Shown here one piece after another: positions 42,647 through 61,566 of a stretch of 64,000 nucleotides of DNA. The stretch comes from a virus. The position numbers and the translations under genes are program-made. Positions within the stretch are counted from its first letter, which is position 1. Every line of letters starts with the position of its first letter. The notes below the pieces were generated by a model. That model was given only the letters and a program-made list of their open reading frames with translations. It was not told the origin of the DNA and did not search any database. The stretch spans positions 96,001 through 160,000 of IMG/VR virus record IMGVR_UViG_3300022602_000031; one strand, given 5' to 3'.

Positions 42647-42706
42647 GTATTTGTATAAATAATAGTATCATCGTATAAATATATACAAATCCCAGGAGAA
42701 TTCCAG

Positions 42707-43654
42707 ATGCAAAAAACAAACAAAATCAAGTGGCTTATTGCTCACGAACCCGTACATCTTTTCTTACGTACAGCTGAAGCTTTTGCCGCTGATGTCAAAG
42801 AAAAAACCAATGGTTTAATCGACATTGAAATTTACACAGCTACAGAATATGCTGAAAAATTCAACAATGGCGTAAAAGAAAACCCACTAGCACATATGGA
42901 ACGTGGCAACTTAGAAATGAGCCAGTTGCATATTAGTCAACTATGGAAATACAATGTTCCAGCATTTATGGCGTTAGAAATGCCATTCTTGTTTGAGAGT
43001 CATGATCACGCTACTCGTGTTCTTGAAGGTAATATTGGCCAAGATATGTTGCTAAGTCTTAAAGAAAAATCACCAGCACGTGGGCTAGCATTTACATACT
43101 CTGGTGGTTATCGTGTAATGGTTTCAAACGAAGAAGTTAACGAATTAGCAGACTTCCGTAATATGAGATTCTACACAGGTACAAACCCAATTGGTATGGA
43201 CACTATTGAAGCTATCGGTGGTCAGCCAGATCCACACGCGATTGACCACTTTTGGCAAACTGTACACAAAGAAGGTGACCGTCATGACGCAGTTGATACA
43301 ACATTGCCACGTATTTTAGCTACTGTTGATAAAACTAATAAGCGTTATATCACCGATACTAAACATAGCCTATTCCTAACAAGTATTATTGTTAGTGAAA
43401 CTTGGTGGGCAAGTTTGGATACAGAAACAAAAGAAACATTGGCCAAAGCCGCAGTTGACGCCGCACGTTTAGAGCGCAAGTGGTCAATTGATGATTCTGA
43501 AGTAGTTGCTCGTGATGCTGTTAAACACGGTCTGAGCTACAAAGAATTGGACAAATCCGAAATGGACAAGTTCCGTGCTTTAACTGAGCCATTGTACGCC
43601 AAATATGATTCCGTGTTTATGCCTGGTTTGATTGGTGGCATTATCCGCAGTTAA
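42707..43654 (+). CDS. dctP: DctP-like (TRAP solute-binding fold) protein without signal peptide, paralog 1
   Basis: FAADVKEKTNGLIDIEIY, ALEMPFLFESHDHA, GLAFTYSGGYR; hydrophilic N-terminus. Confidence 0.8.
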   Translation: MQKTNKIKWLIAHEPVHLFLRTAEAFAADVKEKTNGLIDIEIYTATEYAEKFNNGVKENPLAHMERGNLEMSQLHISQLWKYNVPAFMALEMPFLFESHDHATRVLEGNIGQDMLLSLKEKSPARGLAFTYSGGYRVMVSNEEVNELADFRNMRFYTGTNPIGMDTIEAIGGQPDPHAIDHFWQTVHKEGDRHDAVDTTLPRILATVDKTNKRYITDTKHSLFLTSIIVSETWWASLDTETKETLAKAAVDAARLERKWSIDDSEVVARDAVKHGLSYKELDKSEMDKFRALTEPLYAKYDSVFMPGLIGGIIRS

Positions 43655-43657
43655 TCA

Positions 43658-43686
43658 TTGCAATCCTGTTAGTTTTAAAGTATAAT
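43658..43686 (+). promoter_or_regulatory. sigma70-type promoter
   Basis: TTGCAA(43658-63), 17 bp, TATAAT(43681-86); ATG at 43695. Confidence 0.6.
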
Positions 43687-43694
43687 CAGATTCT

Positions 43695-44147
43695 ATGAAA
43701 GATAATTTTTTAGAATCTGATTCTCTATCCAATAAACGAATCTTAATTTTTGGTATAACCAGAATTCAAAGTCAACCTACTGTTCGGCAGATACAAGAAA
43801 TTGATACAGCCTATGGTGAGTTGCGTCAATATGTTAACGAAGTTTATTGCGTATCTTTTGATGATTTTTTATTATTTGATCAACTTACACCAAGGTTTTC
43901 AAAAACAATTAAATTTATTCAGAATGGTCAATTGTTACCCAGAGTTCAAGAACTATTAAATAAACGTGGGCACAAAGATTTTTTAAAACAGTATTGGCAG
44001 TTTGTATGTTGCATTAATAACGGACAGATTGAGTTTTATCAAGAACATCCGTTTGATAAATTGGATTTAGATCCCGATACAGTTAGAAAAATATATAAAC
44101 AAGTATCACCAGCAGTGGCATTAGAAAAATTAAAGGAAATAAAATGA
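43695..44147 (+). CDS. Degenerate peroxiredoxin/redoxin-fold protein, paralog 1
   Basis: NKRILIFGI...EVYCVSFDD...INNGQIEF resembles PRX5; no peroxidatic PxxxTxxC. Confidence 0.5.
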   Translation: MKDNFLESDSLSNKRILIFGITRIQSQPTVRQIQEIDTAYGELRQYVNEVYCVSFDDFLLFDQLTPRFSKTIKFIQNGQLLPRVQELLNKRGHKDFLKQYWQFVCCINNGQIEFYQEHPFDKLDLDPDTVRKIYKQVSPAVALEKLKEIK

Positions 44148-44308
44148 CCGAAGCAGAATTAATAGACTACCTAACACAAAATTTAAAAATTAATAGTTTT
44201 AACACCGTTGGTCCATACGACGACACTGATAATTTTACTGTACAATTAGTATTAAATGATACAGTAATTAGTGAAACAGTACTAAACGTAAACGACGGAA
44301 GTAAATAA
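44144..44308 (+). CDS. 54-aa acidic hypothetical protein
   Basis: Translated by hand (MTEAELIDYLTQNLKINS...); SD AAGGA; ATGA overlap. Confidence 0.55.
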   Translation: MTEAELIDYLTQNLKINSFNTVGPYDDTDNFTVQLVLNDTVISETVLNVNDGSK

Positions 44309-44317
44309 GTTTCATTT

Positions 44318-44393
<76 letters not shown>

Positions 44394-44398
44394 GAATT

Positions 44399-44474
44399 GG
44401 GGGTGTAGCTCAGCTGGGAGAGCAGTAGCTTTGCAAGCTAAAGGTCGTCGGTTCGATCCCGACCATCTCCACCA
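44399..44474 (+). tRNA. tRNA-Ala(TGC)
   Basis: Loop TTTGCAA, G3:U70, CCA. Confidence 0.93.
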
Positions 44475-44480
44475 AAACTT

Positions 44481-44554
44481 GGCCCTTTAGTTTAATGGCA
44501 GAACAGGAGTCTCCAAAACTCTTGGTGGAGGTTCGATTCCTTCAGGGGTCGCCA
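44481..44554 (+). tRNA. tRNA-Trp(CCA)
   Basis: GGAGT-CTCCAAA-ACTCT, G73, CCA. Confidence 0.93.
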
Positions 44555-44560
44555 AACAAT

Positions 44561-44634
44561 GCGGGTGTCGTAAAATGGTATTACCTTAGCCTTCCAAGCT
44601 AAAGTCAGGGGTTCGATTCCCCTCACCCGCTCCA
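44561..44634 (+). tRNA. tRNA-Gly(TCC) copy 1
   Basis: TTAGC-CTTCCAA-GCTAA, U73, CCA. Confidence 0.95.
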
Positions 44635-44636
44635 GG

Positions 44637-44665
44637 TTGACACAAAAGTCTCAAAATAGTATACT
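44637..44665 (+). promoter_or_regulatory. sigma70 promoter internal to the tRNA array
   Basis: TTGACA(44637-42), 17 bp, TATACT(44660-65); tRNA-Asp starts at 44674. Confidence 0.8.
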
Positions 44666-44673
44666 ACATTATT

Positions 44674-44750
44674 GGAGAAGTAGCTCAGTTGGTTAGAGTG
44701 CCTGCCTGTCACGCAGGAAGTCGCGGGTTCGAGTCCCGTCTTTTCCGCCA
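44674..44750 (+). tRNA. tRNA-Asp(GTC)
   Basis: CCTGC-CTGTCAC-GCAGG, G73, CCA. Confidence 0.95.
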
Positions 44751-44756
44751 AGTTTC

Positions 44757-44832
44757 GCTCGGTTCGTCTATCGGTCTAGGACACCGCCCTTTCACGGCGG
44801 GAAGAGGGGTTCGATTCCCCTACCGAGTACCA
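44757..44832 (+). tRNA. tRNA-Glu(TTC)
   Basis: CCGCC-CTTTCAC-GGCGG, CCA. Confidence 0.95.
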
Positions 44833-44840
44833 AAATTTAT

Positions 44841-44915
44841 TCCCCGTTAGCTCAGAGGTAGAGCAGTAGACTGTTAATCTATTGGTCCCTGGTTCGATCC
44901 CAGGATGGGGAGCCA
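44841..44915 (+). tRNA. tRNA-Asn(GTT)
   Basis: GTAGA-CTGTTAA-TCTAT, G73, CCA. Confidence 0.95.
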
Positions 44916-44935
44916 AACAAAGAAAGGAGAAAGCC

Positions 44936-45367
44936 ATGACAGTTTTTAAGAATTTGATAGGAAAACGCATTAATGGCATTCTCCTAGGTAACGATAATTG
45001 GACTGTAGTGTTCCGCACTACAGAAGGCAATTACTTTCGTTACGACACTGGTAATGATTGTTGTAACACAGTATGGATTAACCATATCACAGGAGTTGAT
45101 GTAGTAGGCAAAGGCAACAGCTTTGATCTATTACGTGGAGCACTGGTAATAGGTGGTGAAGACAAAGAGTGGACCGAGAATCGCCCTGGTGAAGATGGCT
45201 GGGAAGTCATACAAGATGGCTTTTATACCTTACACACTGACCGCGGTTACATAGACATTGAAGTGCGTAACAGCCACAATGGATACTATGGTGGTACATT
45301 TAACGAAACAGACGAAGTAGACCTACAGGACATCGAAGATCTACAAGAAATAACAAACGATTTTTAA
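44936..45367 (+). CDS. Hypothetical protein within the tRNA array
   Basis: Start MTVFKNLIG after SD AAGAAAGGAG; motifs DCCNTVW and NSHNGYYGG. Confidence 0.7.
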   Translation: MTVFKNLIGKRINGILLGNDNWTVVFRTTEGNYFRYDTGNDCCNTVWINHITGVDVVGKGNSFDLLRGALVIGGEDKEWTENRPGEDGWEVIQDGFYTLHTDRGYIDIEVRNSHNGYYGGTFNETDEVDLQDIEDLQEITNDF

Positions 45368-45381
45368 GAAAGGAGCAAGGT

Positions 45382-45624
45382 ATGGATCGGTACACACCAA
45401 TGATTGCCAAAGCAGATCTGGTACACGGCGAATACTATCGCGGCCGATGTCGTAATGCCACTATTGCTCGTTGGAATGCCGAGACACAACGTTTTGTTCA
45501 TTGGCGTACCAAGTTTAAATTTGAATACACTGAAGAAATTTGTCATCCAGATGACGAGCAACATTTTGATGTGTTTGTAGTAGAAACTTTATGCAAGCCA
45601 GAAAAAGAAATACCATTTGATTAA
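45382..45624 (+). CDS. Small hypothetical protein
   Basis: 80 aa; SD AAGAAAGGAG. Confidence 0.7.
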   Translation: MDRYTPMIAKADLVHGEYYRGRCRNATIARWNAETQRFVHWRTKFKFEYTEEICHPDDEQHFDVFVVETLCKPEKEIPFD

Positions 45625-45641
45625 CAAGAAAGGAGGCACGT

Positions 45642-46247
45642 ATGCCAGCAGTATTTTTAGTAAGCGATACGCACTTTGGTCACGCAGGTGTATGTCGCTT
45701 CACACGTAACGATGGTGTTACAAAACTTCGTCCGTGGGATGATCCTGCGGAAATGGATGAAGCAATGGTTAAAGCGTGGAACGAACGTGTTCGTCCAAAT
45801 GACAAAGTTTACCATCTTGGTGACGTTGTCATTAACCGTCGGGCTATGAGCACCCTTGCTCGGCTTAACGGAGATAAAGTTCTTATCCGCGGTAACCACG
45901 ACATCTTCCGTGATGATGAGTACAGACAGTACTTCCGTGAACTTCGTGCCTACCACGTTATGAACGGACTTATCTTGTCCCACATTCCTCTACACGAAGC
46001 AAGTCTTGGTAGGTTTGGTACGAATATTCACGGACACCTTCACGCTAACAGAGTTATGAAAGCAAGAGGAGTTGATGCTCGTACCGGAGAGACATTATAC
46101 AGTGATGAAGTTGATACAAGATATCACTGTGTCTGTGTTGAACAAACTCCAGACTTCGCACCGATTCTCTTTGAAGATGTATTAAAGAGGATTACTGAAG
46201 AGGGCGGTATTGTTGGCTTCCGTAATGGAAACGGTCCCACAATGTAA
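45642..46247 (+). CDS. Calcineurin-like metallophosphoesterase
   Basis: SDTHFGH, LGDV, GNHD, LSHIP, HGHLH; SD AAGAAAGGAGG. Confidence 0.9.
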   Translation: MPAVFLVSDTHFGHAGVCRFTRNDGVTKLRPWDDPAEMDEAMVKAWNERVRPNDKVYHLGDVVINRRAMSTLARLNGDKVLIRGNHDIFRDDEYRQYFRELRAYHVMNGLILSHIPLHEASLGRFGTNIHGHLHANRVMKARGVDARTGETLYSDEVDTRYHCVCVEQTPDFAPILFEDVLKRITEEGGIVGFRNGNGPTM

Positions 46248-46251
46248 TAAG

Positions 46252-46329
46252 GCAACGGTGGCAGAGCGGCCCAATGCAACGGATTGCAAATCCGTAAGAC
46301 CGGGGGTTCAAATCCCTCCCGTTGCTCCA
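46252..46329 (+). tRNA. tRNA-Cys(GCA)
   Basis: GCAACGG/CCGTTGC, ACGGA-TTGCAAA-TCCGT, U73, CCA. Confidence 0.93.
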
Positions 46330-46334
46330 AATAT

Positions 46335-46419
46335 GCGACTGTGGTGAAATAGGTAGACACAAGAGACTTAAAATCTCTCGACGCAAGTCGTGCCAGTTCG
46401 ATTCTGGCCAGTCGCACCA
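46335..46419 (+). tRNA. tRNA-Leu(TAA)
   Basis: AGAGA-CTTAAAA-TCTCT, long variable arm, CCA. Confidence 0.95.
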
Positions 46420-46423
46420 ATTG

Positions 46424-46498
46424 GGAAATATAGCACAGCGGTAGTGCATCGCCTTCATACGGCGCAGGTCGGTAGTTCGAATCTACCTATTTCCACCA
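46424..46498 (+). tRNA. tRNA-CAT (elongator Met-like)
   Basis: GGAAATA/TATTTCC, CGCC-TTCATAC-GGCG, CCA. Confidence 0.85.
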
Positions 46499-46503
46499 AG
46501 TTA

Positions 46504-46578
46504 GCCTGTTTAGCTCAGTGGTAGAGCATTGTGTTGATAACGCAAGGGTCCGTGGATCGTTCCCACGAACAGGCACCA
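46504..46578 (+). tRNA. tRNA-Ile(GAT) with atypical T-loop
   Basis: TTGTG-TTGATAA-CGCAA; T-loop ATCGTTC; CCA. Confidence 0.85.
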
Positions 46579-46579
46579 T

Positions 46580-46653
46580 GCGGGAGTCGTAAAATGGTAT
46601 TACCTTAGCCTTCCAAGCTAAAGTCGAGGGTTCGATTCCCTTCTCCCGCTCCA
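46580..46653 (+). tRNA. tRNA-Gly(TCC) copy 2
   Basis: Near-identical to 44561-44634; CCA. Confidence 0.95.
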
Positions 46654-46733: not shown

Positions 46734-46736
46734 TTT

Positions 46737-47706: not shown

Positions 47707-48138
47707 ATGACACTACCAAGTTCAGGACAGATATCATTTGGCGACATTGACAACGAAATTGGCGCGGCTAACCAATCGTTGAGTATGAGCTGGCTTGATA
47801 CTGTTACAAAAACTTCCGTTGGTGGTAGTGTTGTTGCTTTAAATGATTTAAATGATCTATACGGATTGGCCTACTATCAAAATAACGTGTGGAACGCAAA
47901 TTGTAATAATGATAATGCTTCCAGTCCTCCAAATTGTAACTGTGGCGATCATAATTGTAGTAATTGCGTAAATTGTAATGCTATTAATTGTGCCAATGGT
48001 GATAGCCAACCATATCTACAACCAAATTGTAACTGCTATCAAACCAATGGTTTAAATTGTACATTTAATTGTACTACTAATAGCACCACTGTTAATTGTA
48101 ATTGTAACTGTACTTTCTGTGCCTGCGCTTGCTGGTAA
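47707..48138 (+). CDS. Cys/Asn-rich RiPP-like precursor or modified virion protein
   Basis: 17 Cys in the C-terminal 78 aa, 14 of them in Asn-Cys dipeptides; ends CNCNCTFCACACW; directly upstream of a SPASM rSAM gene. Confidence 0.7.
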   Translation: MTLPSSGQISFGDIDNEIGAANQSLSMSWLDTVTKTSVGGSVVALNDLNDLYGLAYYQNNVWNANCNNDNASSPPNCNCGDHNCSNCVNCNAINCANGDSQPYLQPNCNCYQTNGLNCTFNCTTNSTTVNCNCNCTFCACACW

Positions 48139-48153
48139 AAATCTAAGGGTTCT

Positions 48154-49602
48154 ATGAAATTTGAAATATATGCGGAACGTAACGCTAAAGATACTGCTGT
48201 CTTTTATTACGACAATCAAACAAATGTATTAACTAATCAACAAGGCGAAGAATTCAAATTTCCTGAAATGCCTACGTTTGCTGAACAGCCAACCAAGCCT
48301 TTTAGCAAAGAAGATCCTTTGCGTAAAAGCCGAGATGTTAATATGATTAAAATACAACTTGGTTTAAGTTGTAATTACAGTTGCGATTACTGTAGTCAAA
48401 AGTTTGTCGAACGTCCTCCTGAAACTAGTAAGAAAGATATTGACGCCTTTATGGCCAAGTTGGATGTGCTCAACATCACAGAAGAACGTGGATTACGTGT
48501 AGAGTTTTGGGGCGGTGAGCCGTTTGTATATTGGAAAACTCTTAAACCTCTAGCCGAAGCATTTGCTGAAAGATACAGTCATTGGAAAAAGCGTCCACAG
48601 TTTAGTGTAGTTACCAATGGCAGTTTGCTTACACGTGAAATCTGTAGCTGGTTATACTATATGGGATTTGGTGTAGGTATCAGCCACGATGGTCCTGGAC
48701 AGGCAGTACGTGGTCCGGATCCTTTTGAAGATCCAGAACGTAAAAAAGTCATATTAGAATTTTACAAAATCATGGCGCCGCAGAATCGCATTAGTTTTAA
48801 TGCTATGATGAATCGTAACAATACTAGCCGTCGCGCAATTAAAGAATATTTTGTAGAGCTCACTGGAGATCCTAATGTTAAGATCGGCGAAGGTGGATTC
48901 ATTGATGCGTATGATCAAGACGGTGCTAACAGTAGTTTAAATACCTTAGACGAACATTTTGCCTATCGTCGACAAGCATTTAATGATTTGTATACCACAG
49001 GTAAGAATTTACATTTTGATACGGTTTATACTAAACTAGATGCTTTTATTAGTAGCTTACTAGCACATCGTCCAGCCGAACTAGTTGGACAAAAATGCGG
49101 TATGGAAGAACCTGGCACAGTTGCATTAGACTTAAAAGGTAATATTGTTACCTGTCAGAATGTCAGCGTAATGGAAACCAGCAAGAACGGCGAAGCTCAT
49201 TTGGGTGGTAACTTAGACGACTACGACAACGTAGCACTCAAAGGAGTTACACATTGGAAATCTCGTACAAATAAAGTAAATTGTGCTGACTGCCCTGTTC
49301 TTCATTTGTGTAAGGGTAGTTGTATGTACCTAGATGGTGAGTTTTGGGATATCACCTGTAACAATGCCTACTCTGATAATATTCCTTTGTTTGCTATGGT
49401 TCTGAATGTAGTTACCAATGGATATATTCCTGTTACTATCAAAGCCGAAGGCTTACCATTGGAGCGACAAGATATCTGGGGTACAGTATACAAACACGAA
49501 GAAACTACAAAGAAAAAAATTATCCCAATTAAAGTAATATCAGAAAAGATAGGTACACTGGATGATATCGAAGTGTACGGTAAATCAAGGGTTGAACTAT
49601 GA
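48154..49602 (+). CDS. Radical SAM/SPASM peptide-maturase-like enzyme
   Basis: CNYSCDYC; FWGGEP; SPASM CG...GNIVTC and CADCPVLHLCKGSC (CX2CX5CX3C); possible N-terminal RRE-like segment. Confidence 0.88.
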   Translation: MKFEIYAERNAKDTAVFYYDNQTNVLTNQQGEEFKFPEMPTFAEQPTKPFSKEDPLRKSRDVNMIKIQLGLSCNYSCDYCSQKFVERPPETSKKDIDAFMAKLDVLNITEERGLRVEFWGGEPFVYWKTLKPLAEAFAERYSHWKKRPQFSVVTNGSLLTREICSWLYYMGFGVGISHDGPGQAVRGPDPFEDPERKKVILEFYKIMAPQNRISFNAMMNRNNTSRRAIKEYFVELTGDPNVKIGEGGFIDAYDQDGANSSLNTLDEHFAYRRQAFNDLYTTGKNLHFDTVYTKLDAFISSLLAHRPAELVGQKCGMEEPGTVALDLKGNIVTCQNVSVMETSKNGEAHLGGNLDDYDNVALKGVTHWKSRTNKVNCADCPVLHLCKGSCMYLDGEFWDITCNNAYSDNIPLFAMVLNVVTNGYIPVTIKAEGLPLERQDIWGTVYKHEETTKKKIIPIKVISEKIGTLDDIEVYGKSRVEL

Positions 49603-49910
49603 CAAACATTAATACACCAGAAATACAGGCACTAGTTGATTACTTAAAATCTCATGTTGCTATTATAACAGACATTGATGTAGCGGCAGTAACTGATCCA
49701 GAATGGCTAGCCCACGCAAATTGTGATCGAGCTATTACTTTAAACGTCCATATGACATTCCAAAGCCCAACACAACCTGGAAGTATTTTCTTTGGAGTCC
49801 CGGCCGCATTGTACGATGATCCTGCTATGTATCCGTTAGTTTTACAAAACTTATATAACTTAATGAATGCCAAGCCTGGCACTATGAACTACGAAGATTT
49901 ACGTAACTAA
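49599..49910 (+). CDS. Hypothetical protein in the rSAM operon
   Basis: 103 aa; ATGA overlap with the rSAM gene. Confidence 0.6.
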   Translation: MTNINTPEIQALVDYLKSHVAIITDIDVAAVTDPEWLAHANCDRAITLNVHMTFQSPTQPGSIFFGVPAALYDDPAMYPLVLQNLYNLMNAKPGTMNYEDLRN

Positions 49911-49912
49911 CA

Positions 49913-50461
49913 ATGAACCTACAACCTTTATTTGCGACACCGCTATGGTCTACTACCTATGACGATGCCGATGAACTCAATCAAAAATTATTAATCGAAG
50001 GTGAATCATATGATTTTATGCAAGATTATTTTGATTTGCCCGGCGAAGGCATAGCCGAACTTAAAGAACGTATTACCAATGAACTAACTAGTATGGTCAA
50101 TGAATTAGCATGGCCTATTAGTAGTTTAACTTTTAGCGGTCGGCAAAATCCCATAGCCCCGGGCAACAATGACACACCACATCATCATCCAGATCACGAA
50201 TTAGTCGGTGTGTACTATGTAAAAGTACCTTCAGTCAGTGGAGACATACTACTACACGATCCGCGTGGTAGTGTTCCTAAGTTTTGGGAAGATCCAAACG
50301 CAGTAACAGAGTCAGAGTACCGTTCAGCAAGACCCTATCATCGCATAGAACCTGTACCAGGAATGTTATTATTTTTTCCTGGATATCTAATACACAGCGT
50401 AGAATTTAATCGTAGCAATGATCTACGTGTCAGTATAATTCTTAGCATAAACATAGACTAA
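49913..50461 (+). CDS. 2OG-Fe(II) oxygenase (TIGR02466-like)
   Basis: PLFATP...PHHHP...GVYYV...GDI...FPGYLIHSV...RVSI. Confidence 0.8.
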   Translation: MNLQPLFATPLWSTTYDDADELNQKLLIEGESYDFMQDYFDLPGEGIAELKERITNELTSMVNELAWPISSLTFSGRQNPIAPGNNDTPHHHPDHELVGVYYVKVPSVSGDILLHDPRGSVPKFWEDPNAVTESEYRSARPYHRIEPVPGMLLFFPGYLIHSVEFNRSNDLRVSIILSINID

Positions 50462-50462
50462 A

Positions 50463-51647
50463 ATGAAATCGATCACAGTAGTGGGTGGCGGTACCGCAGG
50501 GTGGCTTACCGCACTATACTCTCTACAGTTATTCCCCAATAGCAAAGTAACGGTTATCGCCAGTAGCGAAATTGGAGTACTAGGTGCTGGCGAAGGAACT
50601 ACTCCGGCATTTAACGAGTTTGTAGAAAATCTAGGCATCGATGTCAATGACATTATTAAAAAAGCCGCTGGTACAGTTAAAAGCGGTATTAGATTTACCA
50701 ACTGGAATGGTCCGGATACTGGTTACTATCATCCGTTTTGGGAAGGCCGTACAGCTCTACACTTTGATGCTAATTTATTAGCTAAATTTTTACAGGACAT
50801 TGCCATTGGTAGAGGCATACAACTAATTGATGATGTAATCGTCGGTGTTGATACCCGCAGTCTAACTCTACAGTCTGGTCAGATACACTCATATGATTTT
50901 ATATTTGACTGTTCGGGCTTCCGTCGTTTAATTATAGGGCAACACTATAACAGTACCTGGAATTCTTATAGTCGGTCATTGCCAGCCAAACGTGCTATGC
51001 CTTTCTTTATCCCACACAATGGCAACATACCTGAATATACTGAAAGTATAGCAATGAAGTATGGATGGGTATGGCGAATACCTGTACAAGGACGCTATGG
51101 TTGTGGTTATGTATTTGACAGCGATTACATCACCGACGCACAGGCCCTGGCAGAAATACAAGAAAGTTTTGGTCCAGTAACTAGTCCACGTACATTTAAC
51201 TTTGCGGCTGGAAGTTACAGCCAAACTTGGATCAACAATGCAGTTGCCATTGGCCTAAGTGCTGGATTTACTGAACCATTAGAAGCTACTAGTATATGGA
51301 CTGCTATTACTTCGCTACAACATTTTAAAGATAAAATAGATGGCATAGACAGACCTGAGATTAAAGAACTCTACAATCGTGATATAGAAAAACTAAATCA
51401 AGATTTCATGACATTTATACACTTTCATTATTTGTCACAGCGCAACGACAGTGAGTTTTGGCAAGAATTTGCTACAAAGAATACTACACCAGACTTTATA
51501 CAACGTATGGGGCGCCGCGCTCCTACACAACAAGAGTTAGATTATCTTTATCAGGTTGAAAATCCTGGCGAACTATACAAAATTAAAACATACCCAGTCA
51601 ACAGTTGGTTAGCAGTTGGCAACGGCATAGGATACTTTAATGGCTAA
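50463..51647 (+). CDS. Flavin-dependent tryptophan-halogenase-like enzyme
   Basis: VVGGGTAGW, GAGEGT, VKSGIRFTNW, FDCSGF, GWVWRIP, EPLEAT. Confidence 0.88.
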   Translation: MKSITVVGGGTAGWLTALYSLQLFPNSKVTVIASSEIGVLGAGEGTTPAFNEFVENLGIDVNDIIKKAAGTVKSGIRFTNWNGPDTGYYHPFWEGRTALHFDANLLAKFLQDIAIGRGIQLIDDVIVGVDTRSLTLQSGQIHSYDFIFDCSGFRRLIIGQHYNSTWNSYSRSLPAKRAMPFFIPHNGNIPEYTESIAMKYGWVWRIPVQGRYGCGYVFDSDYITDAQALAEIQESFGPVTSPRTFNFAAGSYSQTWINNAVAIGLSAGFTEPLEATSIWTAITSLQHFKDKIDGIDRPEIKELYNRDIEKLNQDFMTFIHFHYLSQRNDSEFWQEFATKNTTPDFIQRMGRRAPTQQELDYLYQVENPGELYKIKTYPVNSWLAVGNGIGYFNG

Positions 51648-53115
51648 CTGTATTATATTAGCCGGAGGAACCTGGGTACCTGACTACACTAGTAAAATAC
51701 AACGTGGGCTCGGTCCATATCGTATTGCTACAGCACTAGAAACAGCTGGATATACTGTACAGGTTATAGATTTTGTTATACATTTAACCACAGAAGAAAT
51801 TATACAGGCCATCAGTAAGCATCTAGGTCCCGATACACTATGGGTAGGATTTAGTAGCACATTCTTTTGGAATACCAATCAGGTCAATCCCGAGCAGTCT
51901 TGGTTAGATAGAATGTACTGGACAGACTACAGTAATGTAAAGCCTATTATTGATTATATAAAACAAACAAGCTCAGCTCGGTTAGTCTATGGAGGCGCCA
52001 AAACACCTTTTCTAGTAGGCACAGACAAAAATATTGATCATTATGTGGTTGGCTATGCTGATACAGCCATAGTTGAACTTACTCAATCTATAGAACGCAA
52101 GCAACCAGCAGAACTGGTAATAGACAGCACCGTATACCCAGCACCTAAAATGGACAGTTTAACTACTTGCTGGCATACAATATTACCTGGCGAAGGGTTG
52201 CCAATTGAACTAGCACGTGGTTGTATTTTTAAATGTAAATTTTGTAGTTATCCTTTGCTAGGAAAAAAGAAAGGAACCTATCTAATAGACACCAACTTGG
52301 TTAGAGATCAATTATTGGCCAACTACGAGCAACACGGAACAACTCGTTATTACATTACCGATGATACTTTTAACGATGACAATGACAAAATAGAAGCATT
52401 GCATCGTGTGTTTACTGATTTACCTTTTAAAATTCAATTTAGTTGTTATCTAAGATTAGACCTACTACATAAACATCCGCATCAGGCTGACCTGTTATCG
52501 GATATGGGACTGATAGGTACATACTTTGGTATTGAAAGTCTACTGCCAGAGAGTGCTAGAGCAATAGGCAAAGGCCTACACCCTAACAAAGTTAAGGATA
52601 GACTGTATTGGCTACAAGAACGTTGGCATCAACAGGTTAATGTTGCCGCAGGATTTATACTAGGACTACCATACGATACAACCGAGTACTTTGATAGTTT
52701 AATCAACTGGTGTATGGAAGCTGATAATCCATTACAACATATATCATTTTATGCGTTGATGTTTTATAACAAACAGATTAACGATGATGCCAGAGAAGAT
52801 AGGCTACGTCCTTATTATTCTGAGTTTACCTTACACCCAGAAATATACGGATATGAATTTGACAAAGACAGCATAATGAGCTGGAGCTTACCCAGTCAAC
52901 ATTTGAGTTATGATAAGTGTTTGTCTATTGCGGACTACTACAACGGCCTGGTTGCGGATCGCAACAAAATTAGCGATTTCCAGCTGATATCGCACTTAAA
53001 TATAGGTATACCGTTGGCAGATATGTACGAATTAACACAGCAAGAGATTAACCGCCGTTACGACATTAACCAACTAAATCAACAGCGTTTAATTGACTAT
53101 AAACAACTATTATGA
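51640..53115 (+). CDS. B12-binding-domain radical SAM enzyme (class B methyltransferase-like)
   Basis: N-terminal GPYRIATALE...WVGFSST...VYGG; ARGCIFKCKFC; DDTFN; FGIES. Confidence 0.8.
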   Translation: MANCIILAGGTWVPDYTSKIQRGLGPYRIATALETAGYTVQVIDFVIHLTTEEIIQAISKHLGPDTLWVGFSSTFFWNTNQVNPEQSWLDRMYWTDYSNVKPIIDYIKQTSSARLVYGGAKTPFLVGTDKNIDHYVVGYADTAIVELTQSIERKQPAELVIDSTVYPAPKMDSLTTCWHTILPGEGLPIELARGCIFKCKFCSYPLLGKKKGTYLIDTNLVRDQLLANYEQHGTTRYYITDDTFNDDNDKIEALHRVFTDLPFKIQFSCYLRLDLLHKHPHQADLLSDMGLIGTYFGIESLLPESARAIGKGLHPNKVKDRLYWLQERWHQQVNVAAGFILGLPYDTTEYFDSLINWCMEADNPLQHISFYALMFYNKQINDDAREDRLRPYYSEFTLHPEIYGYEFDKDSIMSWSLPSQHLSYDKCLSIADYYNGLVADRNKISDFQLISHLNIGIPLADMYELTQQEINRRYDINQLNQQRLIDYKQLL

Positions 53116-53762
53116 TTGTTGAAGAAATTTTTGGATCGCCAGTAATTACAGTACAATGCCCGGACAGCATTTACCATAATCCCGAGCTGACCAAAAGTGT
53201 AGAGCAGATATTGAATTTGCCCACTGTAAAAAATCGTTGGAGATCAGACACCGGGGACAGTCACAAAGGATCGGGGCTGACTACTGTAGGGCAACCATAC
53301 ATTGACCTGGCGTACTTGCCGGGTGCCAAACAGCTAACTGATTGGATTTCTGAACAGCTACTATTAGTTAAGCCCATAATGGCTCCCGGTAAAACAGGTT
53401 CCCACATACACTACAAACGCAGTTGGACTAATAGACTATATCGTGGTAGTCAAGGTATGTGCCACAATCATACCAGAGCTGATACTTATATACAAGAACG
53501 TGGTGATTATAATGAAGAAAATTTTTGTCCCGACGCTGTAGCAATTTTTTACGTTGATGTACCGGAGGGTAGCAGTCAGTTGGTATTGATCAACAACGGC
53601 ATTCCAGACTTACCGCATACAGCATTTACAGAAAAACATTTTATGACACACACCGCTGGACAATTAGTTATACACAGTCCACAGGTATGGCACGCGGTTA
53701 CTGAACATCAAAGTGATAGTCCTCGTAATGTCTACGTGTTTGATGCTGATTATGTTAACTAA
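53112..53762 (+). CDS. 2OG-Fe(II) oxygenase-like protein
   Basis: SWTN...CHNH...AIFYV...SPQVWHAV...R.VYVFD. Confidence 0.65.
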   Translation: MIVEEIFGSPVITVQCPDSIYHNPELTKSVEQILNLPTVKNRWRSDTGDSHKGSGLTTVGQPYIDLAYLPGAKQLTDWISEQLLLVKPIMAPGKTGSHIHYKRSWTNRLYRGSQGMCHNHTRADTYIQERGDYNEENFCPDAVAIFYVDVPEGSSQLVLINNGIPDLPHTAFTEKHFMTHTAGQLVIHSPQVWHAVTEHQSDSPRNVYVFDADYVN

Positions 53763-55023
53763 TTATTTTAATTCCGCCGTTGTTGCGTAAACTGTCAACA
53801 AATAGTAAGTTAATGTCGCAGTAATTATCCTGTATAAAGTTAGTAACGGCGTCTTTGTCTTGTGTAAGTGCGTGTAACATAAAATCACCACCTACAATTT
53901 CTATTGCGTAGTTTACAATGCCGGTAGAGTTTTCAAACGCCTGTTTAAAATCTCGTACACTGATTAAATTACCATTGTAGCGTATTAAGTTATATCGGCG
54001 TCCAAAGAACTGTAATTGATTGTTGGTATAACTTCCTCGATCGCTAGTAGTATACACTATGCCATCTGGTCTAGTAATGACTATAGAGTCTTGATTGTTT
54101 GTATGACAATGGTAGGCTACATTAACCCAGTCAAATGGTTTTGCCAGGTCCTCTGCGGTATGTATGTCCTTAATAGCCAATGGTGGCAAACATTCAGTTA
54201 ATCCATAGGTATCATACAAATGATCATAGCTACAAGACTGTTGTATATAGTCTAACAGAGTTGATTTAAATACATCTCCGCCGGTAGTGATCATTCTAAA
54301 ATGTCGTTGCGGTAACGGAAATAAATCTTTCATAGTATAGAAATACTGTATGTGTGTCGCTTGAACTGATTCTTCTGCCCAGGTATTAGTTCCAGCAATA
54401 CTTAAGGTTGTTGCACTAAACACCGCAGGTAAAATAGCAGTAGTGTGTACACCTTGATGACTCATTCCGTGTAAAAATACACAGTAATCTGTAGATTCAA
54501 AGAAATATTCTTGTGCTCGCTGTATACTAATTGCTTCTACATAAGCACTTAGACTTTCCAATTTGGGTCTATCGGTTGTGCCTGATGTATAAGCTGATAC
54601 TGTTTGTTCTTGTGTAAAATTTATAACAAGATCATCGCACATTGGCCAACGACCACTGGCCCAGGCGTGTTCCCAACTGTCGGTTCGGATATAATATTTT
54701 GGAATATTAACAAAATGTTGATCGTCTCTAGTGTCGCCAGCAACAAATATAGTGCTTAGATTTAGTTCTCGAAAGGTATTGCCATTGAGTTGATTGCCTA
54801 AGTTGCCTAAATGATGATAATCACGCCCACTACGGTATAAGGCCAGCAATAAAGCGATACAGCTAAAACTAAGACCAGAGTAGGCGATGCCAATTGGAGC
54901 AGGATCTTCTATTAAACTTATTTGATGCCGCCAGTAGCTAACAGCCTGCGCTAAATCCTGGCGAGTGTAACTGACACGATTGTACTTAATAATTAAGTTA
55001 GGGCTGACGTTGAGACTGATCAT
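53755..55023 (-). CDS. ANL-superfamily adenylate-forming enzyme (AMP-binding)
   Basis: YTSGTTDRPK, TGGD, YGLTE, TSDRG, FGRR. The start at 55023 or 55044 is uncertain. Confidence 0.75.
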   Translation of the reverse strand: MISLNVSPNLIIKYNRVSYTRQDLAQAVSYWRHQISLIEDPAPIGIAYSGLSFSCIALLLALYRSGRDYHHLGNLGNQLNGNTFRELNLSTIFVAGDTRDDQHFVNIPKYYIRTDSWEHAWASGRWPMCDDLVINFTQEQTVSAYTSGTTDRPKLESLSAYVEAISIQRAQEYFFESTDYCVFLHGMSHQGVHTTAILPAVFSATTLSIAGTNTWAEESVQATHIQYFYTMKDLFPLPQRHFRMITTGGDVFKSTLLDYIQQSCSYDHLYDTYGLTECLPPLAIKDIHTAEDLAKPFDWVNVAYHCHTNNQDSIVITRPDGIVYTTSDRGSYTNNQLQFFGRRYNLIRYNGNLISVRDFKQAFENSTGIVNYAIEIVGGDFMLHALTQDKDAVTNFIQDNYCDINLLFVDSLRNNGGIKIIS

Positions 55024-55207
55024 ACCGTTCCTGAGATTGGTCAAGCAATTCTTTTACTTTACGTTCGCTATAAGTGGCAAATACGCAAGGTAGTACAGCG
55101 TGTATGATACTGGCAATGCCGGCAATAATCAAAACGGTGCCAGCATACACAGCAAAACAAAAATGTCCTGTATAGGTATAGTTGCGATCTTTAAGGTGTT
55201 TGAACAT
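54998..55207 (-). CDS. Small membrane protein
   Basis: HLKDRNYTYTGHFCFA, a hydrophobic segment, then HAVLP. Confidence 0.55.
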   Translation of the reverse strand: MFKHLKDRNYTYTGHFCFAVYAGTVLIIAGIASIIHAVLPCVFATYSERKVKELLDQSQERYDQSQRQP

Positions 55208-56520
55208 TAATAAATTACCAACTTTCTGTCAATACAATGTATGATTTTAGTCTGGTCTTGTCGGGCCCGATTCCATACTGCGCCAGCATCCAAAGGGCTG
55301 TTAACTTCTATGTCGCTGTCTCCAAGGTAATAAAACGTACTTAAAAACGTTTTCATATCATATGGCTGTCTGTTGCGACTAGAAATATACTTTTGGTCTA
55401 AATTGTTTAGTACATAATCAATGCCGGCTTGCCAGGTAGTGTATAATCTAGTATCTTTAAAATTTGTAAAAAACCAGGTGTCCATTTCACATTGAAAATT
55501 TAATAAGGGTTTAGCTACTTGGAACGTATTGATATCGTAGTCAGGATAAATTATGCCACGTACTAACTGTTCATACATTTGTCGATTGCGTATATTGTCA
55601 TTGGGCCAACGTACAGCGTTTTGAAATTTGTTGTTGGCCGGCTGACTAAACCATTGTTTGACTACGTGTGCCTGTTTACATACTAGCTCAGGGAAATCTG
55701 GAGTCCAGTAAAACAACTCATTAGTGATATTGGTGTAGTCGCCTACATCATTGTTGTTATGACAGGCCAGTTGATCAATAAAGTACAACCAAAATTTGCC
55801 GTCTTTTAAACAAATTTTAGGTTTGTCTACTCCGTATATAACACCCACTTTTGTATAACGTTCAGCCTGTTCTCTATGATCGGCTAATGCTATTGTAGCG
55901 TGTTTGTATCCGTGGCCTGGCTGTAGATAATTTCTAGTTTTAAATATCCAAGATTCGTCCCGGCTGTCTGAGTCGGCTATCATGGCATCTGTGTAGTCAT
56001 ACACGGTAATTTTAATGTTTGGGTAATGAGTACTAATCCAGTTTAGTAAAGGGCGTGCCGCATATTCCCACTCGCTGAGTGTGTTTTCGCTGCCAGTGTT
56101 CCAAGGATCTGCGCTAACATCCTTTTCGCCACGCTTAGGATAACGAAATACTACTTCGTCAATTGGAATATTGTTTAACACAAAACTGTATAGTACTGTA
56201 GTACTGTCGGAACCGCCGCTGAGTTCAAGACGCAGGTAATCATATGTATCACGTAGTTGTTGTGCTCGCATACGATATAGTTCACGTAATTCAACTTTAG
56301 GCTCTTCGTGCCAGTTAAATTTTAAAAATGCTTCGTCGTTGAATCGCCATCTAACTGGATCGTTATTTAACTGGTGTGTATTAGCAGGTCCGCAACTGGC
56401 CGCAATTAAGGCCTGAACTTTATTGTAGTAAACGTGTTTGCCGAGTTGATAATATCCGAGTTTTTGGTTTGGCTCAAATTTAATACCACCTGCAGAGGTG
56501 TGTTCAATTTTAATTGACAT
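55207..56520 (-). CDS. PP-loop (N-type ATP pyrophosphatase) family protein, paralog 2
   Basis: LELSGGSDS; homologous to 40701-41849; minus-strand TAAATA at 56557-62. Confidence 0.6.
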   Translation of the reverse strand: MSIKIEHTSAGGIKFEPNQKLGYYQLGKHVYYNKVQALIAASCGPANTHQLNNDPVRWRFNDEAFLKFNWHEEPKVELRELYRMRAQQLRDTYDYLRLELSGGSDSTTVLYSFVLNNIPIDEVVFRYPKRGEKDVSADPWNTGSENTLSEWEYAARPLLNWISTHYPNIKITVYDYTDAMIADSDSRDESWIFKTRNYLQPGHGYKHATIALADHREQAERYTKVGVIYGVDKPKICLKDGKFWLYFIDQLACHNNNDVGDYTNITNELFYWTPDFPELVCKQAHVVKQWFSQPANNKFQNAVRWPNDNIRNRQMYEQLVRGIIYPDYDINTFQVAKPLLNFQCEMDTWFFTNFKDTRLYTTWQAGIDYVLNNLDQKYISSRNRQPYDMKTFLSTFYYLGDSDIEVNSPLDAGAVWNRARQDQTKIIHCIDRKLVIY

Positions 56521-58036: not shown

Positions 58037-58039
58037 AAC

Positions 58040-58133
58040 GGAGAGCTGGCCGAGTGGTCGAAGGCACTTCCCTGCTAAGGAAGCATACGGGCTTAAACCT
58101 GTATCGAGGGTTCGAATCCCTCGCTCTCCGCCA
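58040..58133 (+). tRNA. tRNA-Ser(GCT)
   Basis: CTTCC-CTGCTAA-GGAAG, long variable arm, G73, CCA. Confidence 0.95.
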
Positions 58134-58180
58134 AGTTTGTGATAAATAAATACAATAAACACAAATCCCAGGAGTTTTCC

Positions 58181-59146
58181 ATGAATCAAACAAAAACAAT
58201 ACGTTGGGTATTATACCACGAACCGATTGATCTTTTTATTCGCACAGCAGAAGCATTCAGCAAAGAAATCAATCGTTTAACTGATGGTCGCATCAACGTA
58301 GAAATTTACAGCACCAACGAATTTGCTGAAAAATTTAAAAAAGGTGTAAACGTAGAGCCAATGGTTTGGATGCAGGCTGGCGATTGCGAAATGAGCCAGG
58401 TTCAAATTGGCGAAATTGCTAACTGGCATAGCCCAGATTTTTGGGCATTAGAACTACCATTTTTATTCCGCGATCATGATCACGCTACTCGAGCACTAGA
58501 AGGCCCAATTGGGCAAAGTATGTTAAAGAATTTAGAAAATACCAGCCCAGCACGTGGATTGGCATTTACTTACTCAGGTGGATATCGTTGTCTAGCAGTC
58601 GACCGTGAAATTAATACAGCAGAAGGTCTTAAAGGACTAACAGTTATTACTCAAAAAAATCCAATTACAATCGAGACAGCTGAAGCATTTGGTCTAGTTC
58701 CGGTGCCGGTTAATGTTAAAGATCATCTTAACAAAGATAGAAATAAACACACAAACTTCAACGGTAATAACGCAGTTGAAACAACATTACCGCGCTACGA
58801 AGCAGAAGCAAAAACCGAAGCTCATCGTTACATAGCCGATACACGTCACAATATGTATTTGACAAGTATTATCATTGCTAAAGAATTTTGGAATGACTTA
58901 TCTGCTGAAGATCAAGAATTTATTCAACAGGCCGCACTACACAGCAGTCGTTTAGAGCGTCAATGGTCAGTGGCTGATGCTAATAAAATTTCTGACAGCA
59001 AAGAAGAACAAGATAAGTTGGGTGTTACATACAACAATTTTAGCAAAGAAGAAACTGCTAAATTAAAACAAGCAACAGCACATTTGTATGAAAAATACTC
59101 ACAATTTTTTACTCCAGATCTAGTAGATGGAATTATTAAATCCTAA
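58181..59146 (+). CDS. dctP: DctP-like protein without signal peptide, paralog 2
   Basis: MNQTKTIRWVLYHEP...ALELPFLFRDHDHA...GLAFTYSGGYR; TAAATA at 58143-48. Confidence 0.8.
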   Translation: MNQTKTIRWVLYHEPIDLFIRTAEAFSKEINRLTDGRINVEIYSTNEFAEKFKKGVNVEPMVWMQAGDCEMSQVQIGEIANWHSPDFWALELPFLFRDHDHATRALEGPIGQSMLKNLENTSPARGLAFTYSGGYRCLAVDREINTAEGLKGLTVITQKNPITIETAEAFGLVPVPVNVKDHLNKDRNKHTNFNGNNAVETTLPRYEAEAKTEAHRYIADTRHNMYLTSIIIAKEFWNDLSAEDQEFIQQAALHSSRLERQWSVADANKISDSKEEQDKLGVTYNNFSKEETAKLKQATAHLYEKYSQFFTPDLVDGIIKS

Positions 59147-59771
59147 TATCGTTTTTTCAAAATACACAGACAATAAATTAATTGATATAACAGCTCAGGA
59201 TTTGTTTAGTAATAGACGAATCCTGATTTGCTCTGTGGTCCGCCCTCGCGAAAATCTAGATCAAAAATATGCTGATTACATTCAAAGTTTGATTCCGTTT
59301 TATAAACAACACGGAGTCGATGATGTGTATCTTATTAATTCGTCGGCTGGTAAATTTGGCCTGGTTAGATTAGAAAAAAATCATCCACAGATTACCAGCC
59401 TGTACGATAATAATGCTGACTTTGTTCGAGCATTAGCTACACAGTTGAATAAAAAACCCACAGTTGACACTTTGTCCAAATACTGGAGTTATCAGGTTTT
59501 AGTTAATAATGGTAAAGTTGAGCAGTTTTACGAACAACCAACTGAAAATTATATCAAACATATTATTGATGCCGGATATAAAATTGATCTGGGCAACCAT
59601 AAGTTTTTTGCTCTAGAAGGAGATCGGGCATTACATCGCCCTTCGTTGCGGGTAGAAGAACAGCAGTTTGAGCACATAAACATAGAACAAAAACACCTAA
59701 TCACCGGAGCCATTATGTATTTTAATTTATGGCCAAATAACTTGTTGTATAACTATCTAAAGAGTGTATAA
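59127..59771 (+). CDS. Degenerate peroxiredoxin/redoxin-fold protein, paralog 2
   Basis: DLFSNRRILICSV...GVDDVYLINS...YDNNADFV...VNNGKVEQF. Confidence 0.55.
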   Translation: MELLNPNIVFSKYTDNKLIDITAQDLFSNRRILICSVVRPRENLDQKYADYIQSLIPFYKQHGVDDVYLINSSAGKFGLVRLEKNHPQITSLYDNNADFVRALATQLNKKPTVDTLSKYWSYQVLVNNGKVEQFYEQPTENYIKHIIDAGYKIDLGNHKFFALEGDRALHRPSLRVEEQQFEHINIEQKHLITGAIMYFNLWPNNLLYNYLKSV

Positions 59772-59782
59772 TTAACATTGTA

Positions 59783-60050
59783 TTAATAAGTTTGGACAGA
59801 CGGTGTGGCGACCATCTGATACTTGTGGTAGTGTGAGTATTGGCAGGCAGTTGAGCCCCGTGGCATGGAAATGTAATATCGGGTACTCCCGAGGGTATAA
59901 GTAATTTTAGAGCCAAGAAAACGTTGCTAGATTCCATGAAAAACACCCGTGAGGGTTAGCCTTTCGTTGCCGGGTCGCACCCAGCAGGCATTGTGGTCCA
60001 CAGTCGAAAAGCAGATTTTAGTCTGTCCAAACTTATTAAACGGGGTAGCC
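59783..60050 (+). ncRNA. Candidate ~260-nt multibranched non-coding RNA
   Basis: Perfect 19-bp terminal helix 59783-59801/60021-60039; 8-bp second helix 59802-09/59974-81; several internal hairpins; no ORF. Confidence 0.6.
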
Positions 60051-60086
60051 CTTGATAAATAATAACATATACTTGGAGTTTCCCAA

Positions 60087-61043
60087 ATGAGTCAAACAAG
60101 AAAAATCCGTTGGTTAATCGCACATGAGCCCGTAGATCTGTTCCTACGCACAGCCGAAGCATTTCAACAAAAAATCGCCGAATTAACTAACAACGCTTTT
60201 GAAGTAGAAATCTTCACAGCCAGCGAATACAAGACAAAATTTAATAGTTACGATAAAAAAGCCGGCCCAATGGTTGAATTGGACGAAGGCAACATCGAAA
60301 TGAGCCAAATGCATATTACTGAACTAGCAGTATGGCATAACCCAGATTTTTACGCATTAGAAATGCCGTTTATTTTCCGTGATCATGATCACGCTCAACG
60401 TGTACTAGAAGGTCAAATTGGCCGTACAATGTTGGATAATTTAGAACACGAAAGTCCAGCTAAAGGTCTAGCATTTACTTACTCGGGTGGCTTCCGTTGT
60501 GTTGCCAGCGAAGATGAAGTTACCAGCATTGACCAGTTTAAAGGCGCCAAGTTTGCTACAGCGGTTAATCCAGTTACTATTGATACCATTGAAGCATTAG
60601 GTGCAATTCCTGATGTATTCAGTATCAAAGACTTTGCCAAAAAATTAACTGAAGAAGGTAATGATGCCCAGGCATTAGAAACTACTATTCCTCGTTACCT
60701 AGCACAATTTAAAACATCAAACAAGAAATTCTTGTTGAATACCAAACACAGTTTATTCTTAACTACAATTATTGTTGGTAAGAAGTTCTGGAACGAACTA
60801 GATGAAACAACACAGGCCAAGTTCCGTGAAGCCTGTTTGTATGCTAGTCGTTTAGAACGTCAATGGTCAGTTGAAGAAGCAGATGAATTTGCTGATAAAT
60901 TAGATCACAGCGATATTGGTGTTACATACGCAGAATTAAGCGATGCTGAAACTACTAAGTTTAAAGAACTTGTTCAACCACTATATGACAAATACCGTGA
61001 TTTCTTTTATCCCGGTTTAGTTGATGGAATCATTCAAAGCTAA
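60087..61043 (+). CDS. dctP: DctP-like protein without signal peptide, paralog 3
   Basis: MSQTRKIRWLIAHEP...ALEMPFIFRDHDHA...GLAFTYSGGFR; TAAATA at 60056-61. Confidence 0.8.
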   Translation: MSQTRKIRWLIAHEPVDLFLRTAEAFQQKIAELTNNAFEVEIFTASEYKTKFNSYDKKAGPMVELDEGNIEMSQMHITELAVWHNPDFYALEMPFIFRDHDHAQRVLEGQIGRTMLDNLEHESPAKGLAFTYSGGFRCVASEDEVTSIDQFKGAKFATAVNPVTIDTIEALGAIPDVFSIKDFAKKLTEEGNDAQALETTIPRYLAQFKTSNKKFLLNTKHSLFLTTIIVGKKFWNELDETTQAKFREACLYASRLERQWSVEEADEFADKLDHSDIGVTYAELSDAETTKFKELVQPLYDKYRDFFYPGLVDGIIQS

Positions 61044-61566
61044 TTTACTCCCTGTTAGTTTTAAAACCACAATCAACAACCGAGAGGCAACTCTCGGTTT
61101 TGTTGACGTCTTTGCGAATAGACGTATAGTAATTTACAGTCTACCGACGTTACTGACTAAATTTGCCTGGGATCAATTACGTGCCTATGAAGAAGCTAAT
61201 CAACAGATTTTAAATTCTGGAGTCGATCAAATTTATTGTATAAACAGTAACGCTGAAAGTCGTATGCTGGCATATTACGCATCTAAGTTCAGCCAAACAG
61301 TAGTAGCATTACCTGATTTAAACACTACAGTATTACAGGCCATACAACAAGAATTTAGCATCGATAAAGAATTAAAAGACCTAGCAAGGCTATGGCAATA
61401 CATTATTATCGTCAACGATGGCGTCCCAGAAAAGTTGTTTAGTAATCCACTTAAAAAGAATATGCCATTAAGAATTGCCAAAAGCCGTCTGTATCAATAT
61501 CATAATCTAGGGCCAGATGTGGTATTAAAATATTTGACCACACAAGAAAAAATAAGTACAATATAG
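61024..61566 (+). CDS. Degenerate peroxiredoxin/redoxin-fold protein, paralog 3
   Basis: DVFANRRIVIYSLP...GVDQIYCINSN...ALPDLN...IVNDGVPEKLF. Confidence 0.6.
   Translation: MESFKANLLPVSFKTTINNREATLGFVDVFANRRIVIYSLPTLLTKFAWDQLRAYEEANQQILNSGVDQIYCINSNAESRMLAYYASKFSQTVVALPDLNTTVLQAIQQEFSIDKELKDLARLWQYIIIVNDGVPEKLFSNPLKKNMPLRIAKSRLYQYHNLGPDVVLKYLTTQEKISTI

Follow-up and report, generated by a model that had tools for sequence, protein, structure and literature searches.

In this study, we analyzed a 64,000-nucleotide window (bases 96001-160000) of the 180 kb IMG/VR contig IMGVR_UViG_3300022602_000031 (CheckV completeness, ~50%) and focused on three two-gene cassettes. Each consists of a gene for a protein of the DctP family, the substrate-binding proteins (SBPs) of transporters of the tripartite ATP-independent periplasmic (TRAP) type, followed by a gene for a protein with a peroxiredoxin (Prx) fold. 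The interpretation that we favor, tentatively and with a rough probability of 0.45, is that each pair is a late, non-transport cassette encoding an abundant cytoplasmic ligand-binding flytrap together with a cognate accessory protein. The initial annotation of this DNA had described three such pairs, in which the first protein lacks a signal peptide, neighboring DctQ and DctM genes and the carboxylate-binding arginine (Arg), while the second resembles PRX5 without its peroxidatic cysteine (Cys) motif. It had proposed a repurposed intracellular binding protein with a co-conserved partner rather than a transporter. Coordinates, gene content and all of these features were borne out by our analysis (Table 1), and a cytoplasmic, non-transport function is well supported by the missing leader, the lack of DctQM in the contig and of DctM in complete relatives, the lost Arg, the leaders of the closest cellular relatives and the congruent trees of the two proteins. 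Of the outcomes that the annotation had named as refuting its view, neither dctQM elsewhere in the contig with exported proteins nor a lack of co-conservation of the partners was seen.

All three first genes matched the Pfam family PF03480 (DctP), with E-values between 5e-36 and 2e-39. Among the NCBIfam models, their products exceeded the cut-off of NF037995 and did not reach that of TIGR00787 (98-108 bits against a cut-off of 175). The AlphaFold2 (AF2) model of DctP-like 3 shows the full TRAP SBP fold, with Foldseek TM-scores of 0.81-0.85 to solved TRAP SBPs. The phage proteins thus share the family and the two-domain flytrap fold with TRAP SBPs such as SiaP and DctP, and they keep the GG-x-R motif, the NP turn and FRDHDH (as in 4xfe). 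Unlike those proteins, they are viral, have neither a signal peptide nor DctQM, carry Tyr, Ile or Ala in place of the Arg and are preceded by a late promoter motif.

The absence of a leader is evident from the start of the proteins. The three N-termini read MxQTxKI(K/R)W(L/V)..HEP, and the start MxQxxKIRWLIAHEP is found in 24 of 24 aligned members of the phage family. In the AF2 model of DctP-like 3 the first beta-strand spans residues 5-11, so that there is no room for a signal peptide. A longer DctP-like ORF is impossible in pairs 1 and 3, and DctP-like 2 was assigned to the ATG at 58181 because the promoter motif falls within the extension from the GTG at 58139. Neither DctQ nor DctM was found in the 180 kb contig, and two relatives with a CheckV completeness of 100% (357 and 374 kb) contained no DctM, DctQ not having been searched there. 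A possible copy of DctQM in the host is irrelevant without export of the DctP-like protein.

In TRAP SBPs, an Arg on strand beta-6 is present in 96.8% of 6,142 sequences, and its replacement by Ala abolishes binding by SiaP (reviewed in PMC5812351). When DctP-like 3 was aligned with 4p47 and 4xfe, the Ala of FKGAKFA fell in the column of the Arg of LKIR, and the last residues of FRNMRFY (Tyr) and LKGLTVI (Ile) occupy this column in the other two copies. Outside the Arg column, invariance of 97% or more was found at 41 positions in 187 sequences drawn from both clades of the phage family. The set includes H13, E14, S73, Q74, H100, H102, Y132-S-G-G-x-R137, R203 and H221, which are present in all three paralogues. 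In the AF2 model the invariant positions map to strand ends and hinge strands, which would correspond to the ligand-contact zone of type II binding proteins. Because the positions lining the cleft are almost invariant across the family, the protein is most likely still a ligand binder.

The second protein of each pair is related to Prx5-type peroxiredoxins. phrog_2281 ("peroxyredoxin") matched all three partners and PF08534 (Redoxin) matched two of the three marginally, at 28 bits. The best Foldseek match to the model of partner 3 was the hybrid Prx5 of H. influenzae, 1nm3 (E = 5e-11), to which a partner could also be linked by phmmer (E = 3e-9). The fold and detectable homology are therefore common to the phage partners and to Prx5 proteins such as 1nm3 and the cyanophage "antioxidant protein" of phrog_2281, whereas the peroxidatic Cys and the catalytic Arg are not. 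In the alignment to 1nm3, the Cys of PGAFTPTC (motif PxxxTxxC) is gone in all three partners, and the catalytic Arg of WRY is replaced by Q, S and Q. Among 24 partner homologues the only invariant residue is a Trp, and none of the active-site positions is conserved; the peroxidatic column is variable, and a Cys persists there only in loci L005 and L011. The partner family has thus decayed from a catalytic to a non-catalytic one. The homologue in cyanophage S-SSM4 keeps both PGAFTxxC and WRY, and no DctP gene adjoins it.

The two genes are tightly linked, overlapping by 20 nt in two of the three pairs, and they share a history. We constructed separate phylogenetic trees of the DctP-like and Prx-like proteins from 27 non-redundant pairs. 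In both trees the proteins fell into three clades (9, 7 and 11 rows) whose members and branching order were identical, with support values of 100/100/97 for the DctP-like proteins and 98/99/96 for the Prx-like proteins; the window contains one pair of each clade. These identical clades indicate that the pair was duplicated as a unit long ago and subsequently co-diverged. Within the pairs, the partner evolves approximately 2.5 times faster than the DctP-like protein. A search with the sub-alignment of type C partners as the query returned 10 loci, nine of which were already known to be paired and one of which ends at a contig edge.

The DctP-like proteins belong to a large family of phage proteins. 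We identified more than 2,400 metagenomic homologues, the best 120 of which are 59-85% identical and 315-365 aa long, and 416 IMG/VR stretches encoding a DctP-like relative; the nearest Atlas clusters are 88-100% viral. Among GenBank phages there was no close homologue, only bacterial-type matches at ~24% identity. Over 92 loci, a Prx-like ORF directly follows the DctP-like gene in 34 and does not in 57. Of 40 unpaired genes, 39 have Arg in the Arg column, whereas all 25 paired genes have another residue there; the lone unpaired gene without Arg (L086) has a Prx-like ORF upstream instead. In a tree of 71 rows, one branch (support, 99) carries both the only change of Arg state and the only change of partner state. 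Judged from these sequences, the pairs are a clade within a larger phage DctP family that lacks leaders, and the other clade of this family keeps the Arg.

The Arg-retaining clade resembles the paired one in being leaderless, in its late promoter and in the invariant cleft residues. It differs in having kept the Arg, in lacking a Prx-fold partner and in its flanking genes, which encode a DUF2061 membrane protein upstream (26 loci; Pfam E-value, 4e-14) and an SGGxDS PP-loop enzyme of a different type downstream. This sister cassette, in which ATAAATA is followed by DUF2061, the leaderless Arg-containing DctP-like protein and the PP-loop protein, was seen at L048:3634-6116 and at ~37 other loci. 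No DUF2061 gene was found in the window. In at least four contigs, we also observed a DctP-like gene split into two overlapping ORFs of ~160-180 aa each (Table 1), for which a conserved split, a frameshift and a pseudogene are candidate explanations.

A scan of 185,579 species' genomes yielded 21 cellular relatives, of which 17 were in metagenome-assembled genomes of Bdellovibrionota. The Bdellovibrionota proteins are 25-38% identical to the phage proteins, share WxLAHEP with them and have signal peptides. Since these closest cellular relatives carry leaders, the loss of the leader is specific to the phage clade. They differ from the phage proteins in being exported and in having other neighbors, often genes for AMP-binding, MBOAT and unknown ~330-aa proteins, with no Prx-like gene among them. 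The exported orphans of these predatory bacteria (L093, L094, L095, L096, L098 and L103) have no DctQM beside them, and their neighborhood resembles Dlt/alginate O-acylation systems. We considered and dropped a Dlt-like operon shared between Bdellovibrionota and the phage, as the AMP-binding ORF of the phage (53755-55044) has no detectable homology to the AMP-binding neighbors of the bacterial genes.

The cassettes are preceded by a motif that they share with virion genes. Within the window, [TG]ATAAATA has 14 occurrences on the + strand and one on the - strand, and it stands directly 5' of the tail sheath gene (9564), the gene at 13227, the tail tube gene (13907), the gene at 16853, a virion protein gene (22114) and each of the DctP-like genes. 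This motif fits the T4-type late promoter consensus, TATAAATA. Across the family, ATAAATA lies 26-48 nt 5' of the start codon in 55 of 70 distinct upstream regions, with a few copies nearer or farther. The initial annotation had reported an RNA gene and TAAATA before each module. Both are present, the RNA genes being tRNA-Tyr (42561-42646), tRNA-Ser (58040-58133) and a structured RNA of ~270 nt (59780-60052), but it had overlooked that TAAATA is part of the T4-type late promoter motif. Each module being placed behind an RNA gene, the cassettes can therefore be regarded as self-contained late units within the tRNA/accessory region.

A second element, GGAGWWTYCC, combines the Shine-Dalgarno (SD) sequence with a conserved TYCC. 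Its three occurrences in 64 kb all fall at DctP-like starts, one at each, against an expectation of 0.32, and none of 100 shuffled sequences reached three; it also recurs at starts in relatives. GGAGWWTYCC is a specific, conserved element of the initiation region. A 5' untranslated pattern previously described for two of the modules, CAAATCCCAGGAG, was recovered in two. A GGA-loop-TCC hairpin over the SD, suggested earlier for all three, was rejected: its minimum free energy (MFE) of -2.4 to -2.9 kcal/mol is no better than that of shuffled sequences (z of -0.9 to +0.2). Without a stable hairpin, the motif could be a protein- or ribosome-recognition element.

Located on the + strand between pairs 2 and 3, the ~270-nt RNA shows a terminal helix of 18 bp, and its MFE z is -3.3. 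Homologues were detected at 19 or more related loci, mostly beside a type B or type C pair, and 22 of its 50 predicted base pairs show compensatory changes. A search of Rfam with this RNA gave no match even at E = 1.

We used codon bias as a proxy for protein abundance. The DctP-like genes ranked 2nd, 5th and 7th among 32 genes of the window (effective number of codons, ENC, 38.4-40.6), on a par with the genes for the tail sheath and the gp32-like single-stranded DNA-binding protein (SSB). Their partners were among the least biased genes of the window (ENC 45.3-52.0). In a length-matched comparison, 20 of 27 pairs showed the weaker bias in the partner (median difference, 6.7; p ~2e-4, an approximate value, the pairs being related).

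The best analogue known for these pairs is the TPAT of Treponema pallidum, in which TatP(T), a DctP homologue whose Arg is replaced by Ala, is associated with a soluble accessory protein, TatT, docked over its cleft (PMC5812351). Both systems combine an Arg-less DctP homologue with a dedicated accessory, and by analogy docking may be expected in the phage pair. In TPAT, however, the proteins are lipoproteins of the periplasm and come with a membrane unit, TatQM, and the accessory is a TPR protein rather than a Prx-fold protein. No homology was found between the TPAT accessory and the phage partner.

Taken together with this analogy, the data suggest the following scenario. The first gene encodes a DctP-family Venus-flytrap that is made in the cytoplasm, probably abundantly and alongside the virion proteins. 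Binding of one specific small molecule, probably an anion, has most likely been retained, and the classical carboxylate-clamping Arg is no longer used. The second gene encodes a non-catalytic, fast-evolving and seemingly less abundant Prx-fold protein, which co-diverged with its own DctP-like neighbor and may serve as a cognate accessory, that is, as a loader, gate or chaperone of the flytrap, as TatT does on TatP(T). The three copies are ancient duplicates of the whole pair that probably differ in partner specificity or in fine ligand preference and not in ligand class; because they share the cleft, the same ligand class is likely for all three.

Several points weigh against this scenario. 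Since the Arg and partner states changed in a single evolutionary event, their link amounts to a perfect co-distribution, which is no statistical association. A simple 1:1 complex is at odds with the weaker codon bias of the partner. Of the scaffold partner proposed in the initial annotation, the cognate, co-diverged partner stands, and a 1:1 scaffold is questionable given how much weaker the codon bias of the partner is. A search for a fused DctP-Prx protein among longer proteins found none, which is weak evidence. Finally, the late timing is read from a promoter motif and the abundance from codon bias.

The same observations could be explained, though we consider this rather unlikely, if the DctP-like protein were associated with the virion as an accessory structural, decoration, sensor or ejected protein that is produced with the other late proteins. 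The Prx-fold protein would then be its dedicated folding or assembly chaperone, comparable to the cognate chaperones of phage fiber and capsid proteins. A late promoter common to the sheath, tube and virion genes and a codon bias similar to that of structural genes would fit such a role, and the lower bias of the partner, its faster evolution and its co-divergence with the client are what a specific chaperone would be expected to show. However, the genes lie in the tRNA/accessory region, outside the structural block, and carry no structural or anchoring domain. Their copy number differs between relatives, and the invariant polar residues of the cleft suggest the binding of a small molecule.

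The neighborhood of the pairs offers another explanation, which we regard as unlikely, namely that the flytrap holds the substrate or product of neighboring virus-specific PP-loop (QueC/Asn-synthase-like) enzymes. Two paralogous PP-loop ORFs flank pairs 1 and 2, and ORFs of their type occur near 12 of 37 paired loci, while a different PP-loop type is found within a few kb of the DctP-like gene at 37 of 50 unpaired loci. The adjacency of the Bdellovibrionota homologues to AMP-binding enzymes points in the same direction. On the other hand, the paired clades show a weaker association, the PP-loop genes are low in codon bias and have no late-promoter link to the pairs, and an enzyme subunit would not need such abundance. 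The PP-loop family itself, which was found in viruses only, is known by its motif and by faint QueC/Asn-synthase leads; the ORFs of the window had no PHROG and no PDB sequence match, and their Pfam hints were below threshold.

It is improbable that the pairs act as an anti-defense sponge for host immune signaling molecules, the example put forward in the initial annotation. A high-affinity binding fold, apparent abundance, a cytoplasmic location and several paralogues would suit a sponge. The promoter, however, is late rather than early and is common with tail genes, which is a poor fit, and the cleft has not diversified but is invariant in hundreds of phages. General scans of Pfam, PHROGs and NCBIfam returned nothing similar, and no search was aimed at sponge families (Tad1, Tad2, Acb2).

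Genes for periplasmic binding proteins, PstS for example, are known from phages. An ordinary auxiliary metabolic gene of this kind, feeding a host TRAP transporter, would agree with the Pfam and NCBIfam membership of the DctP-like proteins, but these have no signal peptide, whereas their cellular relatives have one, they have lost the Arg required for high-affinity TRAP binding (PMC5812351) and they score below the TIGR00787 cut-off. In practice, a transporter can be ruled out.

The DctP-like family is large, virus-specific and highly conserved, and it is common in uncultured aquatic phages. Its genes are probably among the most strongly expressed late genes of widespread uncultured phages of ~350 kb, and a search of the literature library used here returned nothing relevant on phage DctP proteins or leaderless TRAP SBPs. 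The family is a clean evolutionary case of a periplasmic receptor that lost both its leader and its membrane partners and acquired a dead-enzyme partner. The sister clades, one with Arg and unpaired and the other without Arg and paired, provide a natural experiment on the ligand and on the role of the partner. A broader proposal, which is possible and which we hold to be doubtful, is that aquatic jumbo T4-like phages turned an exported bacterial transporter receptor into an abundant, late, intracellular (or virion-loaded) and new class of small-molecule-capturing proteins. One lineage would have exchanged the carboxylate clamp for a co-evolving pseudo-peroxiredoxin, giving a phage-specific metabolite- or signal-sequestering complex that has no described counterpart. 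If the ligand were a host signal or a key metabolite, this would represent a new route by which phages manipulate the infected cell.

Table 1. Features of the three DctP-like/Prx-fold cassettes, neighboring PP-loop ORFs and split DctP-like genes in related contigs. Coordinates refer to the window unless a locus is named.
Feature	Coordinates	Strand	Remarks
Late-promoter cores, two TATAAATA, upstream of pair 1	42654..42681	+	[TG]ATAAATA motif
Start-site motif GGAGAATTCC, pair 1	42695..42704	+	GGAGWWTYCC (SD + conserved TYCC); conserved in relatives
DctP-like 1 (type A clade)	42707..43654	+	315 aa; no leader; Tyr in the Arg column
Prx5-fold partner 1 (type A)	43695..44147	+	~150 aa; no peroxidatic Cys, no catalytic Arg
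Late-promoter core GATAAATA, upstream of pair 2	58141..58148	+	[TG]ATAAATA motif
Start-site motif GGAGTTTTCC, pair 2	58171..58180	+	GGAGWWTYCC
DctP-like 2 (type B clade)	58181..59146	+	321 aa from ATG 58181; Ile in the Arg column
Prx5-fold partner 2 (type B)	59127..59771	+	214 aa with C-terminal extension; 20-nt overlap with the DctP-like stop
Late-promoter core GATAAATA, upstream of pair 3	60054..60061	+	[TG]ATAAATA motif
Start-site motif GGAGTTTCCC, pair 3	60075..60084	+	GGAGWWTYCC
DctP-like 3 (type C clade)	60087..61043	+	318 aa; Ala in the Arg column; AF2 pLDDT 89.9
Prx5-fold partner 3 (type C)	61024..61566	+	180 aa from ATG 61024; 20-nt overlap with the DctP-like stop; AF2 pLDDT 95.1
Virus-specific PP-loop (SGGxDS) ORF	40677..41849	+	Possible functional neighbor of pair 1
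Paralogous PP-loop ORF near pair 2	55207..56520	-	32% identity to 40677-41849; conserved beside pairs in L008, L011 and other loci
Split DctP-like genes	L013:1989-2940; L024:1982-2939; G001:C1:197578-198434; G003:C1:40491-41347

We further examined the genomic context of the cassettes. The window has a GC content of 39% and contains 23 tRNA genes. It encodes a tail sheath, a tail tube, a large terminase, a gp32-like SSB and a UvsX-like recombinase, a set that identifies the virus as a jumbo myovirus of the T4 superfamily; relatives reach 357-374 kb. A DNA-level search against GenBank phages returned tRNA matches only. The tRNA genes lie at 38339-61647 in several arrays interspersed with late-promoter cassettes, and three of them have a CAU anticodon.

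An enzyme-dense island occupies 38505-40109 and 47707-55044. It encodes two Trp-halogenase-like proteins, two radical S-adenosylmethionine enzymes (one with a B12-binding domain), two 2-oxoglutarate-Fe(II) oxygenases, an AMP-binding-like ORF and a methyltransferase, and it looks like a small-molecule or peptide-modification cluster. Near the end of the window, a transketolase-like protein is encoded in two ORFs on the - strand (63010-63941 and 62066-63061), one for the part that binds thiamine pyrophosphate and one for the pyrimidine-binding part. A gene for an NAD-dependent sugar epimerase/dehydratase adjoins these ORFs, and relatives carry a large block of sugar-nucleotide and glycosyltransferase genes at the same place.

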